Part shown: in pieces, positions 3,142-25,541 of the stretch
Numbering within the stretch: position 1 is the stretch's first letter
Layout of the letters: the number at the start of each line of letters is the position of its first letter
Source: Armatimonadota bacterium
GTDB taxonomy: Bacteria > Armatimonadota > SYMT01
Assembly: GCA_046292385.1 (NCBI GenBank)
Contig: JBKBRF010000037.1
Span: forward strand, 1 to 64,000
Length of the DNA: 64,000 bases
Direction: 5' to 3'
Program-made: the position numbers and the translations under genes
Notes under the pieces: generated by a model
Told to the model about the DNA's origin: nothing
Databases searched by the model: none
The model's input: only the letters and a program-made list of their open reading frames with translations

Positions 3142-4113
3142 ATGCAAGTTCACTACCAGGACGGCATCTTTCTTCCCGGCCCCGGGCTCTGGCTCGACCC
3201 GCGCAGGGCGCGCCAGACCGCCATCGTCTCGCATGCCCACGCGGACCACGTGCAGCGTCACCAGCAGGTGATCACCTCGGTCCCCACGGCGGCGATGATG
3301 CGGCTGCGCGGCCTTACTCGCTGCCAGTTCCGCACGCTGCCGTACGGCGCCGCGGAGATGATGGGGGAGGCGCGGGTCACCCTGTACCCGGCGGGGCACA
3401 TCCTGGGGTCGGCGCAGACGCTGGTCGAGTGGGACTCCGCCCGCCTGCTCTACTCCGGCGACTTCAAGCTGCGGCCCGGGTTGAGCGCGGAGCCGGTGGA
3501 GGTGCCGCAGGCCGACGTGGTGGTGATGGAGACCACCTTCGGCCGGCCTCGCTACCGCTTTCCGGAGACCTCCACCGTCATCGAGCAGATCCTGGCGTTC
3601 TGCCGGCGCGCGCTGGCGGACGGCTGCACGCCGGTGCTGTTCTGCTACAGCCTGGGAAAGGGGCAGGAGCTGCTCGCCTGCCTGGACGGGCTGGAGCACC
3701 CGATCTACCTGCACGAGAAGCACTGGGAGATGGCGTCGCTCTACGTGGAGCACGGGGTAAAGCTGCCGCCGTTCCGCAAGTACGAGCCGGGGCAGCCGCT
3801 CGACGGCGTGCTGCTCTGCGCCTCCGGCTGTCGAAAAGCGGCCTGGTTCAGCCAGCTCGCGCGACTCCGGACCGCGTACGTCTCCGGCTGGGCGATCGAT
3901 TCCGGCGCCCGGTGGCGCTTCCGCACCGACGCCGCCTTCGCGCTCTCCGATCACGCCGACTACGACGACCTGTGGGAGTACGTCCGCCGCACCGGAGCCG
4001 AGCGGATCTACACGATGCACGGCTTCGCGGACCAGTTCGCCGGGGACCTGCGCCGCAAAGGCTACTGGGCCGAGCCGCTGCGAGAGCCGCCGCTCCAGCT
4101 CAGCCTGTTCTAA
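3142..4113 (+). CDS. MBL-fold (beta-CASP-like) nuclease, ligase-associated DNA damage exonuclease type
   Basis: SHAHADH, PAGHILGSA, YSGDFK, METTFG, YSLGKGQE, LSDHAD. Confidence 0.9.
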   Translation: MQVHYQDGIFLPGPGLWLDPRRARQTAIVSHAHADHVQRHQQVITSVPTAAMMRLRGLTRCQFRTLPYGAAEMMGEARVTLYPAGHILGSAQTLVEWDSARLLYSGDFKLRPGLSAEPVEVPQADVVVMETTFGRPRYRFPETSTVIEQILAFCRRALADGCTPVLFCYSLGKGQELLACLDGLEHPIYLHEKHWEMASLYVEHGVKLPPFRKYEPGQPLDGVLLCASGCRKAAWFSQLARLRTAYVSGWAIDSGARWRFRTDAAFALSDHADYDDLWEYVRRTGAERIYTMHGFADQFAGDLRRKGYWAEPLREPPLQLSLF

Positions 4114-4131
4114 CAACCAGCTCAAAGGGGC

Positions 4132-5310
4132 GTGATACCGGTGCCGGATCCGGGCCAGGAATGCAGGGTCACCGTGGGGAGAAACGAGGAGCGGAAGGCG
4201 GTCTGCGCCCGCTTTGAAGCGCTGTACTACGCCATCCTCGCCACCGAAGCTTCCCTCGGGCGGAGCGAGCCCCGGATCGACGAGGGGCTGGATCCGGAGC
4301 GGCTCCGCGCGCTCTATGAACGCCGCTTCGCCCTCGAGCTGCCGCCGCTGCCGTTCCGCGCGCCGACCGTCGACGCGCTGCTTCGCCGCGCCCGCGCGCT
4401 GCTGACGCCCGACCGGCTCCTTGTGCTCGCCGCGGGAGAGGCGGTGCGGCACGAGGACGGCCGGCTGGAGGCGCGGCTCACGACCGGTGAGGGGGAGAGC
4501 GCGCACCACTGGTCACTCCACGCGATCTGCGACGCTCGCTTCTGGGGGATCGATATCCGGCCGATCGATCCCGCCTCCCGGGAGGTGGTGGAGGAGAGCG
4601 TCTGGGGCCGCGTGCTGCAGTCGCTCGAGTCGGACCTCGCTTCGCTCGCCAAGATCGAGCGCCGCTTCGCCCACCGCGAGGGGCCCCCGGAGATGGAGAT
4701 CGTCTCCACCGGAGAGGGCGAGGCGTTCGAGCGGCTGATGACGGAGATCCTCGATTGCCCGCCCTGGAAGGCGCGGCAGGCCTCGCTGGCGGAGGACTTC
4801 CTGGAGAAGACCGACCTCCGCGTCTCGCACCCGGAGCTCGGCCGGCCCCGCGGCGCGCGCGTGCAGGTGGCGCTCACCGGCAGCCGAGCGCGCAGCGAGA
4901 GCAAGCGGGAGCAGATCCGCGCCGCGGAGGAGTTCGTGCACCTCTCTCCCCGCACGCTCGCGGAGGCGCTCGTCTCCGGGGTGCTCTCCGGCGCGGAAAC
5001 CGCGGCCGTGCACCGCGCCCTGGGAACCGCGAAGAAGTCGACCGGGGAGATCGCGTGGGAGCTGCGGCGCCACTTCCTGCAGGCGATCCGAGAGCCCAGG
5101 GAGGACCCCCGCGGTCCGATCATGCGGATCCCGGAATCAGTGCGGGGGCTCGTCCGCGCGTACGTGACGCAGGAAGCGACCGCCGCCACCCGCGCCCTGC
5201 GCGAGAACGAGGCACGCCGCAGCCGGAACCGCACGCCACCCTGCGATCCAACGGGCGACGCCCAGCCGGCCGATGTCGCGGCACCGGAAGGTTTGGATGA
5301 GGTACTATGA
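4132..5310 (+). CDS. Hypothetical protein, possible restriction-endonuclease-like C-terminal domain
   Basis: 392-aa ORF filling the gap between genes; GEAFERLM..EDFLEKTDLRV..RVQV acidic pattern. Confidence 0.55.
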   Translation: MIPVPDPGQECRVTVGRNEERKAVCARFEALYYAILATEASLGRSEPRIDEGLDPERLRALYERRFALELPPLPFRAPTVDALLRRARALLTPDRLLVLAAGEAVRHEDGRLEARLTTGEGESAHHWSLHAICDARFWGIDIRPIDPASREVVEESVWGRVLQSLESDLASLAKIERRFAHREGPPEMEIVSTGEGEAFERLMTEILDCPPWKARQASLAEDFLEKTDLRVSHPELGRPRGARVQVALTGSRARSESKREQIRAAEEFVHLSPRTLAEALVSGVLSGAETAAVHRALGTAKKSTGEIAWELRRHFLQAIREPREDPRGPIMRIPESVRGLVRAYVTQEATAATRALRENEARRSRNRTPPCDPTGDAQPADVAAPEGLDEVL

Positions 5311-21076: not shown

Positions 21077-21252
21077 CAGGGCCTCCCGGGCGGTGAGAGC
21101 GAGCGAGCGACACTCGTAAAGTGGCTCCCCCGCGCTGCAGAGTTCGGACCGCCACTACAGCTGCGATTCCCCGCCAAAACCGAGGAACCGCCCCTGCGGT
21201 GCCGGGTCTTGCAGTCAAGTTGAGCGGGCCTAGACGAGGGTGGGGGAAGAGA

Positions 21253-21732
21253 ATGCTGACTAGAAGCGTGACGCACGCGTTGAAGATAATCGGGCTGACG
21301 GCCCTCGCGGGCGCGGCGGTTCTGCTGCCGGCGCAGGCTGCCGGCGCGGACCCGGATGATGGCCGTCGCGGGGAGTACCGCGGTCGCTACGACCGCGACG
21401 ACGATGACGACTGGAAGGAGCGCCAGAAGCGCCGGCACGAGCTGGAGCGCGAGCACTACAAGCGGGAGGCCGAGCGCGAGAAGGAGTGGGCGAAGCGCGA
21501 GAAAGAGCGCCGCAAAGAGTTGGAAAAGCTGCGGCGCGAGCGAGAGAAGTATGAGCGGAAGCATGGCCGCTCTTATCGTTCGGACCGCTACTCCCACCCC
21601 CGCGTGACCGTTCGCGGCCGGCGCACCGACCTGGACCGGGACGGGATTCCGAACAGCCGCGACCGTGACATCGACGGCGACCGAGTCCCGAACACCCGGG
21701 ACCGCCACCCCTACGACCGCCGCCGGCGGTAA
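21253..21732 (+). CDS. Secreted low-complexity charged protein with DxDxDG motifs
   Basis: Signal peptide; DLDRDGIPNSRDRDIDGDRVPN. Confidence 0.7.
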   Translation: MLTRSVTHALKIIGLTALAGAAVLLPAQAAGADPDDGRRGEYRGRYDRDDDDDWKERQKRRHELEREHYKREAEREKEWAKREKERRKELEKLRREREKYERKHGRSYRSDRYSHPRVTVRGRRTDLDRDGIPNSRDRDIDGDRVPNTRDRHPYDRRRR

Positions 21733-21798: not shown

Positions 21799-22680
21799 TC
21801 AGCGCAGCTCTGCCAGGAACTGCCGGTGCAGTGCGGTGAGGTGCAGACTCGACCGACGCACCAGGTAGAAGCCTCGCCGGAGCTGCAGCCCGGTGAGCGG
21901 TCGGGTCACCAGTACGCCCGCCTGCACCTCGAGGTCTACCGCGTGCTCCGAGACGAGCGCTACGCCGAGACCGGCTGCCACGCTCCGCTTGACCGCCTCC
22001 GTGCTGCCGAGCTCCATCGCAACCCTCGGCTCCAGCCCGCATTCTCGGAGCGCCCGCTCCAGTACCTCTCGGGTGCTCGACCCCCGTTCCCGAAGCACCA
22101 GCGGCTCCCCTGCGAGCTCCGGCGGCCGAAATGGGGCAGCCGACTTCACGCGGCGATGACCGGGCTGTGCGATCAGCACCAGGGTTTCTTCCCACAGCCG
22201 CTCCGCGATCACTGCCTCCGGAAAGGCAGTCTCGCCCACTACCGCGAGATCGAGCCGCCCGCCTACCACCCGGGCCAGGATCTCCCGGGTGTCGCTAATC
22301 TCCAACGAGACCTCCACCCCCGGATGCTCCTGGTGAAAGCGACCGAGTCGTTCCGGAAGCAGGTAGGTGCCGGGCGTGCTACTGGCGCCGACTACCAGGC
22401 GCCCGGCCTCTCCGCCGCGCAGCGCGGCAAGCGCCGCATCCGCATCCGCCAGCTCCGTCAGCACCCGCTCCACGTAGCCGAGGAGCATCCGACCTGCATC
22501 CGTAAGTGTGGTGCGCCGGGCGATCTGCTCGAAGAGCGGCAGGCCGACCTGGCGCTCCAGGTCCTTCACGCTCTTGCTGACAGCGGGAGCGGAGACAAAC
22601 AGCGCTTCGGCCGCGCGCCCGAAGTGTCCGTGCCGCGCCACCTCTCGGAAGACTTTCAGCTGGTTCAGGGTAGCGTCCAT
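21799..22680 (-). CDS. LysR family regulator (CysL-like)
   Basis: TLNQLKVF..FGRAAEALFVSAPAVSKSVKDLE HTH; GASSTPGTYLLP; RERGSSTR. Confidence 0.93.
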   Translation of the reverse strand: MDATLNQLKVFREVARHGHFGRAAEALFVSAPAVSKSVKDLERQVGLPLFEQIARRTTLTDAGRMLLGYVERVLTELADADAALAALRGGEAGRLVVGASSTPGTYLLPERLGRFHQEHPGVEVSLEISDTREILARVVGGRLDLAVVGETAFPEAVIAERLWEETLVLIAQPGHRRVKSAAPFRPPELAGEPLVLRERGSSTREVLERALRECGLEPRVAMELGSTEAVKRSVAAGLGVALVSEHAVDLEVQAGVLVTRPLTGLQLRRGFYLVRRSSLHLTALHRQFLAELR

Positions 22681-22766
22681 AGATAACCTCTTAGTTAATA
22701 AGACGGTTACATCATTCTATCCAAAGTTAATGCGCAGCGGGATACGCTGGTGCTGGAGGAGCACCG

Positions 22767-23132
22767 ATGGTCACGAGCTGGATACACCGCCTTCTGCCGC
22801 GGCACCGCGTCAGCACCGCGTTGCGAGAAGCGCCGCCGGAGGAGATCGAAACACTCCTGAACGGTGGATCGCCGCCCCTGCTGCTGGACATCCGCGGCGC
22901 AGAGACCTATGCGGCGGGGCACCTGCCGGGAGCGCTCAACACCCCGGTGGAGCGTCTCCAGGACTCGGTGGCGGACTTCGACCGCGGCGCGCCGGTGGTC
23001 GTCTACTGAGGCTTCGGGATCAAGAGCGCCCAGGCTGGGCGCCTTCTACTCGACCTCGGTTTCCAGCAGGTGTGTCACCTGAAGGGTGGGCTGCGGAGCT
23101 GGCGCGGCGGATTGGAGCGCGGGGATGCCTGA
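22767..23132 (+). CDS. Rhodanese-domain probable selenoprotein (UGA at 23007-23009 read as Sec)
   Basis: LLDIR..GHLPGA..VVVY-TGA-GFGIKS..LGFQQVCHLKGGLRSW; frame stays open to TGA 23130-23132, overlapping the next ATG. Confidence 0.8.
23026..23042 (+). promoter_or_regulatory. Candidate bacterial SECIS hairpin
   Basis: gcgccca-ggc-tgggcgc, 7-bp stem with G-led loop 23 nt after the UGA. Confidence 0.65.
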
Positions 23133-23967
23133 CGTCTCGCGCCTGCTCCAGATCCAGACCGTCGTGAGCGTGCTCGCGCTGGTGCTCCTCTGGCTCCTCG
23201 AGACCGGACTGCCGCTCTTCGTCGACCGAGCCCACCGTCTCCGCCACGCAGCGCGCAACCTCGGGGTCGCGGGCCTGAACATGGCGGTTCTTGGCCTCGG
23301 CTTTGCGGCGGCGACCGCGGCGGCGGCGGGGTGGGCGGAGGCGCATCGCTTCGGGCTGCTGCATCGCCTCTCCGCGCCGCTCTGGGTAGAGCTGGGCCTG
23401 GCGTTCCTGTTGTTCGACGCGTGGATGTATCTCTGGCACCGGGCGAACCACGCCGTCCCGTTCCTCTGGCGGTTACACCGGATGCACCACAGCGACGCGG
23501 AGATGGACGTCACCACGGCGCTGCGCTTCCACTGCGGAGAGATCGTCCTCTCCTCCGCGCTGCGGCTGGCGGTGATTCCGCTGCTGGGACTGCAGGTGTG
23601 GCAGGTGATCGCCTACGAGATGGTGCTGCTGCCGGTGATCGCCTTCCACCACAGCAACGTGGCGCTGCCGGAGAAGTGGGACCGGCTGCTGCGGGTCGTC
23701 CTCGTCTCGCCAAACCTGCACCGCGTCCATCACTCCGACTGGCGGCCGGAGACCGACAGCAACTTCGCCAGCGTCTTCTCCTGGTGGGACCGCCTGGGGC
23801 GGACGCTGCGCTTGCGTGATGAGGTGACGACGCTTCGCTACGGACTGCGGGATCTCGACGGAGACGAGCACCAATGCCTCCTCGGGCTGCTGCGGACGCC
23901 GCTCGCCGGGAGCTGCCATCCCGAGCCAGAGGCCGAACCCGCCGCGCCAGGCCGCGTGAACGCTTAA
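23125..23967 (+). CDS. Sterol desaturase / fatty acid hydroxylase family
   Basis: His boxes HRANH, HRMHH, HHSN, HRVHH; transmembrane segments. Confidence 0.92.
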   Translation: MPDVSRLLQIQTVVSVLALVLLWLLETGLPLFVDRAHRLRHAARNLGVAGLNMAVLGLGFAAATAAAAGWAEAHRFGLLHRLSAPLWVELGLAFLLFDAWMYLWHRANHAVPFLWRLHRMHHSDAEMDVTTALRFHCGEIVLSSALRLAVIPLLGLQVWQVIAYEMVLLPVIAFHHSNVALPEKWDRLLRVVLVSPNLHRVHHSDWRPETDSNFASVFSWWDRLGRTLRLRDEVTTLRYGLRDLDGDEHQCLLGLLRTPLAGSCHPEPEAEPAAPGRVNA

Positions 23968-24059
23968 AACATCGCTGCCCGGCGGTCCACGACCCGCGGG
24001 ACGTGCCGCTCATCGTAGTTCTGCCTCCGCTGACGTAGAATAACCGGAGGGAGGGCGTG

Positions 24060-25541
24060 ATGAGCGAGCGGTATCGGGGGAAGGTGCGGGCGCCGGAGTT
24101 TCCGGCGGGCTTGGAGTGGCTGAACGTCGACCGGCCGCTCAGTCTGCGGGACCTGCGCGGCAAGGTCGTAATCCTCGACTTCTGGACCTTCTGCTGCATC
24201 AACTGCCAGCACGTGCTGCCGCAGCTCCAGCGGCTGGAGGAGCGCTTCCCCACGGAGCTGGTGGTGGTGGGCGTCCACTCCGCCAAGTTCGACGCGGAGC
24301 GCGAGACCTACAACATCCGCCAGGCGGTGCTGCGGCACGACGTGCGCCATCCGGTGGTGAACGACCGCGGCTTCGTGCTCTGGCGCGCCTACGCGGTGAA
24401 GGCGTGGCCGACGCTGGTGATCATCGATCCGGACGGGATGGTGATCGGCGCCCACTCCGGCGAGTTCGACGCGGACGACATGGCGGCGGTGCTGGAGGAG
24501 ATGATCGCCGCCTGGAAGCGGGAGGGGCGCCTCGACCCGCAGCCGCTCGCCACCTCTCCGGAGCGGCTGCGCCAGCCGGAGAGCGTGCTTTCTTTCCCGG
24601 GCAAGGTGCTGGCAGACGCGGGGTCGGACCGGCTTTACGTGGCCGACTCGGACCACCACCGGGTGGTCGAGACCGACCTCCACGGGCGGGTGCAGCGGAT
24701 CTTCGGAAGCGGAGAGCCGGGCTGGGCCGATGGCTCTCCCGCGCGGGCGCGCTTCCGCTTTCCGCAGGGAATGGCGCTCCACGGCGACGGGCTCTACGTC
24801 GCCGATACCGAAAACCACCTGATCCGGAAGATCGCGCTCCACAGCGGGGTCGTCTCTACCGTAGCCGGCACCGGGCGGCAGGCGCGTCCCTGGCCCACCC
24901 CCGGCTCGTGCCGGGAGACGGCGCTCAACTCCCCGTGGGACCTGCATACCGTCGGCAACTGGCTCTACGTCGCGATGGCGGGCAGTCACCAGATCTGGCG
25001 GCTCGACGTTCCCTCCGGCCGGCTGGAGCTGTTCGCCGGCGACGGCCGCGAGGCACTGCTCGACGGCCCGCGGCTCGAGGCGCGGCTCGCGCAGCCGAGC
25101 GGGCTCTCTTCGGACGGGCTCCGCCTCTGGTTCGCGGACAGTGAGACGAGCAGCATCCGCTGGGTGCCGCTGCAGGGGGAGGGGGCGGTGCGCACCGCCA
25201 TCGGCGAGGGGCTCTTCGAGTTCGGAGACGTCGACGGCGCCCAGAAGACCGCGCGCCTGCAGCACCCGCTCGACGTGGAGTGCGCCGGCGGCCTCGTCTA
25301 CGTTGCCGACTCCTACAACAACCGGATCAAGGTCTACGACCCGGTAGCCGGCGAGATCTCGCGCTTCACCGGCTCCGGCGAGCCGGGCCTCTTCGACGCC
25401 GGCCGCGAAGAGGCGTGCCTCTGGGAGCCGGGCGGCCTCTCCGCCGCGGGAGACGTGCTCTACACGGCGGATACGAACAACGGGGCAGTCCGGGCCGTCT
25501 CCCTGCGGACGGGAGAGGTGCGGACGATCGAGCTGGCGTGA
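24060..25541 (+). CDS. Thioredoxin-like + NHL repeat protein (NHLRC2-like)
   Basis: DFWTFCCINCQH, GVHSAKF, repeated YVADxxNHxI propeller blades. Confidence 0.92.
   Translation: MSERYRGKVRAPEFPAGLEWLNVDRPLSLRDLRGKVVILDFWTFCCINCQHVLPQLQRLEERFPTELVVVGVHSAKFDAERETYNIRQAVLRHDVRHPVVNDRGFVLWRAYAVKAWPTLVIIDPDGMVIGAHSGEFDADDMAAVLEEMIAAWKREGRLDPQPLATSPERLRQPESVLSFPGKVLADAGSDRLYVADSDHHRVVETDLHGRVQRIFGSGEPGWADGSPARARFRFPQGMALHGDGLYVADTENHLIRKIALHSGVVSTVAGTGRQARPWPTPGSCRETALNSPWDLHTVGNWLYVAMAGSHQIWRLDVPSGRLELFAGDGREALLDGPRLEARLAQPSGLSSDGLRLWFADSETSSIRWVPLQGEGAVRTAIGEGLFEFGDVDGAQKTARLQHPLDVECAGGLVYVADSYNNRIKVYDPVAGEISRFTGSGEPGLFDAGREEACLWEPGGLSAAGDVLYTADTNNGAVRAVSLRTGEVRTIELA

Follow-up and report, generated by a model that had tools for sequence, protein, structure and literature searches.

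What does an in-frame TGA codon signify when it stands exactly where an enzyme family keeps its catalytic cysteine? The question is raised by a 64,000-nt, G+C-rich stretch of DNA from an Armatimonadota bacterium (contig JBKBRF010000037.1, positions 1 to 64,000), which we refer to as the window and to which coordinates given without a contig refer. Here an open reading frame (ORF) of 80 codons (22767–23009) starts at ATG 22767, preceded by the Shine-Dalgarno sequence GGAGGAG, and stops at TGA 23007–23009, after which the same frame runs on to give a protein of 121 aa (...APVVVY-U-GFGIKSAQAGRLLLDLGFQQVCHLKGGLRSWRGGLERGDA) with its final stop at TGA 23130–23132. An earlier note on this DNA had taken the ORF for part of a hidden selenoprotein, a rhodanese with selenocysteine (Sec, U) at its catalytic position, coupled to a sterol desaturase gene under a divergent LysR-type regulator, and its description of the 80-aa ORF, the TGA stop, the 121-aa frame and the overlap with the desaturase ATG is correct to the base. 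We consider it highly probable that the locus is a selenoprotein operon, in which a Sec-rhodanese gene with a recoded UGA forms a two-gene operon with a membrane oxygenase gene, beside a regulator related to the LysR_Se family. By the computational criteria usual in the field, the rhodanese gene qualifies as a selenoprotein gene.

An in-frame TGA at the catalytic position of a rhodanese

The Pfam Rhodanese domain (PF00581) spans the TGA, covering residues 24–113 of the read-through protein with 68.6 bits against a cut-off of 22.2. Position 81, which the TGA encodes, aligns with the active-site cysteine of the solved rhodaneses 3tp9 and 6mxv in sequence matches to the PDB, and the U-x-x-G motif that begins there reads UGFG in the window and UNVG or UNRG in its orthologues. 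AlphaFold models the read-through protein as a complete rhodanese, with a mean predicted local distance difference test (pLDDT) score of 91.7, rising to 94–98 over residues 81–115, and places U81 after the central strand (77–80) and before a helix (85–96). Foldseek matched rhodanese domains to it at probability 1.00, for example 3tp9, 3mzz and GlpE 1gmx, with template modelling (TM) scores of 0.74–0.78. We read 22767–23132 as one gene, encoding a cytoplasmic single-domain rhodanese of GlpE/PspE type.

The same TGA column, within the same layout of LysR, U-rhodanese and oxygenase genes, occurs in three further sequences at 44–49% protein identity: genome G005, from the same family as the source genome (G000); genome G328, from another family of the phylum; and the metagenome contig L050. 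All three have TGA, not TGC or TGT, at this codon. G005 gave the best non-self match among 61 related genomes (45% identity, one TGA, ...PVVVY-U-NVGLKSAQAS...), while the L050 rhodanese is 47% identical to that of the window and the G328 rhodanese 49% over 95 residues. An orthologue was present only in G000 and G005 in a class sample of eight genomes, and across a phylum sample of 401 genomes an oxygenase of at least 61% identity was found only in G000, G005 and G328, in all three cases with a U-rhodanese directly upstream. When 80 metagenome loci were aligned by tblastn, the residue opposite position 81 was cysteine in 79 and TGA in one (L050), and in a 44-row protein alignment (A4) the column is invariably C or U, with cysteine in 40 rows and U in four. 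These counts confirm the earlier placement of the TGA at the rhodanese catalytic cysteine and supply the pairing of Cys and UGA homologues that the earlier note had named as a check.

Beyond the TGA the frame behaves as coding sequence. Invariant columns in three orthologues number 19 of 40 after the TGA vs 19 of 80 before it. G005 and L050 are identical at 29 of 37 residues after the TGA, with a ratio of nonsynonymous to synonymous substitution rates (dN/dS) of ~0.19; the corresponding post-TGA values are ~0.33 for the window vs G005 and ~0.53 for the window vs L050. The codon itself recurs in independently assembled data: contigs from separate DNA runs, X2 (22714–23096) and X4 (22845–23239), cross the TGA with no differences, and a contig from an RNA library (metatranscriptome), X3 (22764–23431), spans both the TGA and the gene junction and differs only at 22905, 23105 and 23252. 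Sequencing error at the TGA, the objection foreseen in the earlier note, is excluded by these three assemblies. A genome-wide reassignment of TGA is likewise ruled out, since TGA also terminates the rhodanese gene and the LysR gene.

Searches of protein databases recover mostly other rhodaneses. HMMER with the read-through protein found no close orthologue among its best 150 matches, which were mostly multi-domain rhodanese proteins; a word-index search gave five matches; and a profile search returned mainly Cys rhodaneses together with three shortened gene calls. The selenoprotein has indeed been hidden, in that the databases hold these rhodaneses only as short gene calls of 80, 74 and 72 aa, and the annotation of three public calls of 72–80 aa would be corrected to selenoproteins of 113–121 aa.

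That gene callers made products of 80, 74 and 72 aa would fit another explanation, namely that the TGA is a true stop, whether in a pseudogene, through a sequencing or assembly error or at the end of a genuine 80-aa product, with the downstream frame serving as a non-coding leader of the oxygenase gene. We regard this as most improbable, given that the same TGA stands in four sequences differing at more than half of their residues, that the frame downstream of it is under purifying selection and that independent assemblies keep the codon. In the structural model, moreover, an 80-aa product would be left without the catalytic loop, two helices and one strand of the fold.

Other rhodaneses with an in-frame stop near the catalytic loop came to light in the same searches. 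The curated model for rhodaneses of the CxU type, NF041203 (rhodanese_LYCAU), gives the window protein 31.5 bits against a cut-off of 115, and the U of the window stands at the cysteine position itself. A rhodanese of this CxU form, which is already catalogued, is encoded elsewhere in the source genome (G000:C76:18180–18470, minus strand), with a TGA two residues after the catalytic cysteine (...AYC-T-U-P...); the same frame runs upstream into a hydrophobic, transporter-like part. Further CxU-type rhodaneses with an in-frame TGA lie at G005:C5:442499–442786 and G007:C127:5343–5660. At L166, L167 and L169 and at the metagenome loci L075 and L101, rhodaneses carry a stop five residues after the cysteine (C-x-G-G-S-stop-P or C-G-G-P-[TS]-stop); the stop is TGA in L166, L167 and L169 (genomes G014, G029 and G054), and these proteins may represent a C-x4-U form of Sec-rhodanese.

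Stem-loops after the UGA and the selenocysteine machinery

In all four sequences the UGA is closely followed by a stem-loop whose small apical loop contains a G. For the window, the earlier note had singled out a 7-bp hairpin with a G-led loop 23 nt downstream of the UGA. That hairpin exists: its arms (23026–23032 and 23036–23042, GCGCCCA/UGGGCGC) enclose a GGC loop (23033–23035) that starts 23 nt after the UGA, and the interrupted stem of which the hairpin forms the tip (23008–23057) reaches back into the UGA itself, taking in its G and A. The 52-nt fold has an energy of −26.2 kcal/mol (z −3.14) that none of 200 dinucleotide shuffles equals, and compared with 2000 synonymous recodings of the same peptide its z is −1.9, with 3.4% as stable, making it modestly more than chance. 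It is, however, not the conserved element, which is instead a helix shifted by 7 nt.

This second helix, of 7 bp, is shared by the three orthologues (alignment columns 27–33 with 39–45), and its loop reads C-G-N-N-N with C34 and G35 invariant. The window form of it joins 23033–23039 to 23045–23051 in six of seven possible pairs, three of them G-U, around a loop (23040–23044) that likewise begins C-G. Of the 28 cells in the four sequences, 96.4% are paired, and at two of the base pairs both partners have changed; registers slid by 1–3 columns pair at most 50%. Under synonymous recoding, the probabilities of reaching at least the observed number of pairs in the shared register are 0.088, 0.049, 0.078 and 0.045. 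A small apical loop with a G is named as a feature of the bacterial selenocysteine insertion sequence (SECIS) in the Sargasso Sea paper (PMC1088965); the loop of the shared helix is likewise small, and the G that stands second in it is invariant. The support that this helix lends to a SECIS element is moderate. The two hairpins overlap and are mutually exclusive, and either could serve SelB as the SECIS in this organism.

The genes that the earlier note had proposed to look for, selA, selB, selC and selD, are all present in the source genome. We located selA at C11:88809–89894 (487 bits), selB through its C-terminal winged helix on C16, selD at C11:87691–88614, adjoining selA and containing one in-frame TGA (...KCGG-U-ASK...), and a tRNA-Sec of 99 nt beside selD and selA (C11 c87434–87532). 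With selA, selB, a TGA-containing selD and tRNA-Sec in place, the genome decodes Sec. G005 and G328 also each possess selA, selB and a TGA-containing selD.

Two details of this machinery deserve mention in their own right. The tRNA-Sec, selD and selA genes stand side by side (G000:C11:87434–89894, minus strand), and the selD message has a hairpin of 7 bp with a GUG loop, 30–46 nt after the U of its UGA, similar in build to the window hairpin. ARAGORN also called a second, short tRNA-SeC of 83 nt with anticodon tca (G000:C77:16947–17029), which may be either a false call or a second copy.

Several observations weigh against the selenoprotein operon. The window hairpin is not conserved, with 60.7% of its cells pairing across the four sequences. 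The shared helix is weak in the window, where it has three G-U pairs and one mismatch; 27 of 500 shuffles reach its observed values; and its register was chosen after seeing the data, from four related sequences. Whole-fold energies in the orthologues are ordinary, being equalled by 22 and 31 of 200 dinucleotide shuffles and by 24%, 21% and 63% of synonymous recodings. An Rfam scan of 22700–23300 at E ≤ 10 returned no SECIS family, and its four matches, to miRNA, snoRNA and intron models, are of a kind expected by chance. Apart from the RNA, the sel genes lie on other contigs than the operon, the window rhodanese stays below the cut-off of every curated NCBIfam model for a selenoprotein, the LysR regulator scores below the LysR_Se cut-off, and the contig X3, coming from an RNA library, is no proof of transcription. 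The weak SECIS statistics in the orthologues are also the second point in favor of a true stop at codon 81; set against it is a genome that decodes Sec and whose own selD carries an in-frame TGA.

A conserved module of regulator, rhodanese and membrane oxygenase

The rhodanese gene is coupled to a gene of the PF04116 'sterol desaturase / fatty acid hydroxylase' family and faces a divergent LysR gene, as the earlier note had stated (Table 1). The PF04116 match scores 95.7 bits against a cut-off of 31, and the histidines of the His boxes (H105, H109, H118, H121, H122, H175, H176, H199, H202 and H203) are invariant in 63 homologues. In each of the other three operons the oxygenase gene directly follows the U-rhodanese gene, and its product is 70% (G005), 68% (L050) and 61% (G328) identical to that of the window. 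The junction is tight in all four: in the window the end of the rhodanese gene and the beginning of the oxygenase gene share 8 nt, with TGA 23130–23132 lying past ATG 23125–23127 (ATGCCTGA), and in G328 they share 4 nt (ATGA), while 1 nt separates them in L050 and 2 nt in G005. A separate GGAG precedes the oxygenase ATG by 8 nt.

Table 1. Features of the three-gene module, in window coordinates.
Feature	Coordinates	Strand	Basis
LysR-type regulator gene, 293 aa, divergent from the rhodanese gene	21799..22680	-	Pfam HTH_1 + LysR_substrate
Divergent intergenic region, 86 bp, AT-rich	22681..22766	.	Direct sequence reading
Predicted selenocysteine-containing single-domain rhodanese gene, 121 codons + stop, U at codon 81	22767..23132	+	Pfam, alignment, AlphaFold, Foldseek
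In-frame UGA, probably read as Sec, at the catalytic Cys position	23007..23009	+	Same alignment column TGA in G005, L050, G328
Window-specific hairpin, 7 bp, loop GGC, apex of interrupted stem 23008–23057	23026..23042	+	Folding
Conserved-register helix, SECIS candidate common to all four orthologues	23033..23051	+	4-sequence alignment
Membrane di-iron oxygenase gene, fatty acid hydroxylase / sterol desaturase superfamily, 280 aa	23125..23967	+	PF04116

The divergent LysR gene, the U-rhodanese gene and the oxygenase gene are conserved as a unit, and conservation does not extend to the genes beyond them. Immediately after the operon (24057–25541, plus strand) comes a gene whose thioredoxin-like domain, with the motif C-C-I-N-C, is fused to NHL repeats; neither it nor the genes upstream of the LysR gene are conserved beside the operon in G005 or L050. 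On the far side of the LysR gene (21121–21732, plus strand) lies a highly charged ORF of 203 aa, whose central part is rich in E, K and R and whose C-terminus is a series of D-x-D-x-D-G-type repeats (DRDGIPNSRDRDIDGDRVPNTRD), and for which no NCBIfam family match was obtained at E ≤ 1e-8.

Of the divergent regulators, that of G005 is 56% identical to the window LysR, that of L050 60% (its contig ends inside the gene) and that of G328 35%. The window LysR has its best NCBIfam match in NF040786 (LysR_Sec_metab), at 225.2 bits against a cut-off of 250, and the regulators of G005 and G328 also score best on this model (223 and 202 bits). The earlier note had called it 'CysL-like', a label that fits less well: the window LysR scores 107 bits on the CysB family model, 89 on CysB and 86 on Cbl, far under their cut-offs, and no CysL model appears among the best 25 of 54 matches. 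'LysR_Se-like', with a score short of the family cut-off, would be the more accurate description. Within the source genome the window LysR is the second of six LysR_Se-like matches, the top one being another gene on C11 at 260 bits. The intergenic region in front of it contains inverted repeats (TAACC...GGTTA) that form a candidate LysR site; their sequence is not kept in G005 or L050, and no common LysR operator motif is seen across the three intergenic regions, each of which has its own inverted repeat.

Relatives of the oxygenase are plentiful in metagenomes, where 1492 proteins reach E ≤ 1e-20 among 8000 candidates scored, about 45 of them at 63% identity or more. All 120 homologues listed carry PF04116 alone, and no fusion of rhodanese and oxygenase occurs among them at lengths of 154–490 aa. 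Among 22 genome loci of the oxygenase, an adjoining U-rhodanese was found at one (L025, the G005 sequence) and a Cys rhodanese at one (L039), 1.1 kb upstream and in the same operon as the oxygenase homologue. No solved structure matches the oxygenase by sequence at E ≤ 0.01, and no characterised member of its family matches it. The only oxygenase paralogue in G000, at 42% identity, belongs to locus L148 on C50 (962–1921, plus strand, and 3750–4622, minus strand), 1.8 kb from a match to NF041199, 'Trx7/PDZ domain-containing (seleno)protein' (344 bits, cut-off 300). Because that match begins at model position 63, the ORF as called may miss an N-terminus with Sec that is encoded further upstream.

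We also inspected the neighbors of oxygenase homologues of 38–60% identity at 21 genome loci from other phyla, and arsenic-related genes recur among them. The radical-SAM protein ArsS is encoded beside the homologue at L034 and L044 (TIGR04167, 442 and 441 bits, cut-off 300), and L042 has the arsenosugar glycosyltransferases TIGR04282 and TIGR04283, both above cut-off. TIGR04283-like glycosyltransferases just under the cut-off accompany a methylthioribose-kinase-like gene at L027 and L034, with the same Pfam pattern at L032 and L043; L037, L038 and L039 have ArsM-like methyltransferase, ArsR and/or PstS-like genes; and L036 has a LysR_Se-like regulator. At the metagenome loci L108 and L119 the oxygenase homologue is divergent from a gene for an ArsR-rhodanese fusion. 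Recurring clusters that contain the homologue (L027, L031, L032, L034, L035, L043 and L044, from metagenome-assembled genomes of Verrucomicrobiae/Terrimicrobiaceae, together with L042) also include AhpC/redoxin-like and VTT/DedA-like genes, and those at L037–L039 are the clusters with ArsM-like, ArsR and PstS-like genes. These neighborhoods point to the oxygenase homologue as an unrecognised member of organo-arsenic gene clusters, a lead that we noticed after the fact. In the literature searched, no paper joins arsenosugar and sterol desaturase.

Such neighbors could be taken to mean that the pair in the window serves the metabolism of metalloid (arsenic or selenium) organo-compounds or stress lipids and not general sulfur transfer, with the Sec-rhodanese serving the oxygenase, and the oxygenase having as its substrate a lipid or sugar linked to arsenic or selenium, or else remodelling the membrane lipids under metalloid or phosphate stress. 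The genes for ArsS, the TIGR04282 and TIGR04283 proteins, ArsM-like, ArsR, PstS-like and LysR_Se-like proteins beside homologues in other phyla speak for it, as do the ArsR-rhodanese fusions at L108 and L119, the Cys rhodanese in the L039 operon, and the source genome's own ArsS and TIGR04283 genes, which lie on other contigs than the window. Near the operons of the window, G005 and L050, though, there are no arsenic genes; the remaining loci have unrelated neighbors and several of the matches fall under curated cut-offs; the curated model on which the oxygenase scores highest, OlsE, gives it 48 bits where the cut-off is 475; and the association was noticed after the fact. We therefore hold this alternative to be rather unlikely. 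A specific form of it, which we likewise think unlikely, would have a metalloid-linked oxygenase act on organo-arsenic or organo-selenium compounds, or remodel lipids in response to them; in this lineage its synthesis would be gated by selenium through UGA81 and the LysR_Se-like regulator, with the Sec-rhodanese as both its sensor and its working partner. That proposal would explain why arsenosugar genes, ArsR-rhodanese fusions or LysR_Se-like regulators neighbor the oxygenase across phyla.

Proposed mechanism and relation to known systems

For the selenoprotein operon we propose the following scheme. The Sec-rhodanese gene would be the first of a two-gene operon transcribed divergently from the LysR gene, whose product may adjust transcription to a signal that derives from selenium or sulfur. 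The UGA at 23007–23009 would be recoded by SelA, SelB, SelD and tRNA-Sec with the aid of a stem-loop within the ~50 nt that follow. In rhodaneses the nucleophile of the active-site loop carries a persulfide; by analogy with the family, U81 may carry a perselenide or selenopersulfide as a sulfur or selenium carrier, or may act as a redox partner. A ribosome that ends at UGA81 would be released 115 nt before the oxygenase start, and one that inserts Sec would end on top of that start, a layout by which translation of the oxygenase could be coupled to the selenium supply. With a GGAG of its own in front of the oxygenase gene, this coupling need not be absolute. The wider view of the earlier note, a selenium- and sulfur-responsive operon that links Se transfer to a lipid enzyme, is likewise conjectural.

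Taken further, the layout raises the idea that the UGA is rarely decoded and is mainly a selenium-sensing gate, in which termination at codon 81 uncouples the oxygenase, read-through switches it on and catalysis is secondary. The overlap or near-abutment of stop and start in all four operons and the LysR_Se-like character of the regulator would suit such a gate. The catalytic loop and the C-terminal half of the rhodanese are nevertheless strongly conserved, which argues for a working enzyme over a leader peptide, and the GGAG 8 nt before the oxygenase ATG would permit independent initiation. We accordingly judge a pure gate quite improbable and favor a Sec-rhodanese that works as an enzyme within the operon.

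The locus is a small, conserved and easily cloned three-gene unit. It couples the probable selenoprotein gene, at the level of translation, to a gene for a membrane oxygenase, and its regulator is a relative of the one LysR family known to respond to selenium. It adds a Sec-rhodanese lineage from a little-studied phylum and offers a concrete system for asking whether Sec decoding gates a downstream gene and what role is played by this oxygenase subfamily, which is common in soil metagenomes and recurs beside arsenosugar genes.

Among known systems, those close to the rhodanese itself include the single-domain thiosulfate sulfurtransferases GlpE and PspE of E. coli (PDB 1gmx and 2jtq), which have the same domain size and fold (TM 0.75 to 1gmx) and the same placing of the catalytic residue after the central strand, in a short loop of the C-x-x-G-x-[R/K]-S type. 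The window protein differs in having Sec for Cys and K86 where at least 90% of homologues in alignment A4 have Arg, and its NCBIfam scores fall far under the equivalog cut-offs (46 vs 102 for GlpE). Judged by its sequence, it is a relative and not an orthologue of GlpE or PspE.

The prototype of bacterial SECIS elements within an ORF is that of E. coli fdhF. The window resembles such elements in having a stem-loop directly 3′ of the UGA with a small G-containing loop, and in having the UGA in the base of the stem, but differs in that sequence and register vary between the window and its orthologues and that no curated RNA model matches.

The oxygenase has in common with the PF04116 family, including the ornithine-lipid hydroxylase OlsE (NF052566), that it is a membrane protein with a full set of conserved His boxes. 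OlsE is its best curated match, yet the 48 bits obtained lie so far below the cut-off of 475 that it falls outside that family, and its subfamily is set apart by its links to U- or C-rhodaneses, to LysR_Se-like or ArsR regulators and to arsenosugar genes.

LysR_Se (HrsM in Methanococcus) has been proposed as a selenium-responsive regulator of Sec-related genes, according to the account in Lin et al. 2015 (PMC5322559). Of the families scored, this one ranks first for the LysR proteins of the window, G005 and G328, each of which is encoded beside a selenoprotein gene in a Sec-decoding organism; the differences are that their scores (225, 223 and 202 bits) lie below the cut-off of 250 and that the window LysR gene is not next to selA, selB or selD.

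Sec-rhodaneses as such are not new. Rhodanese-related sulfurtransferase selenoproteins are predicted families, first listed, on the account given there, for the Sargasso Sea metagenome in 2005 with three genes (PMC1088965); eight Sec-rhodanese genes are reported in the corresponding part of the work on Olavius symbionts (PMC1976440); and rhodanese-like forms are catalogued in the available text of PMC9312934 and of PMC13188914, the latter distinguishing forms 1–5 with the motif UxxG for forms 2 and 4. The window rhodanese shares with the catalogued proteins the PF00581 domain, a Sec in the active-site loop and the motif U-x-x-G, and by that motif would belong to forms 2/4. The literature searched on Sec-rhodaneses, within the text of it that was available, makes no mention of a pairing with an FA_hydroxylase / sterol desaturase gene or a LysR_Se-like regulator. 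Sec-rhodaneses were thus already known, and what the window adds to them is the conserved pairing with a membrane oxygenase and a LysR_Se-like regulator.

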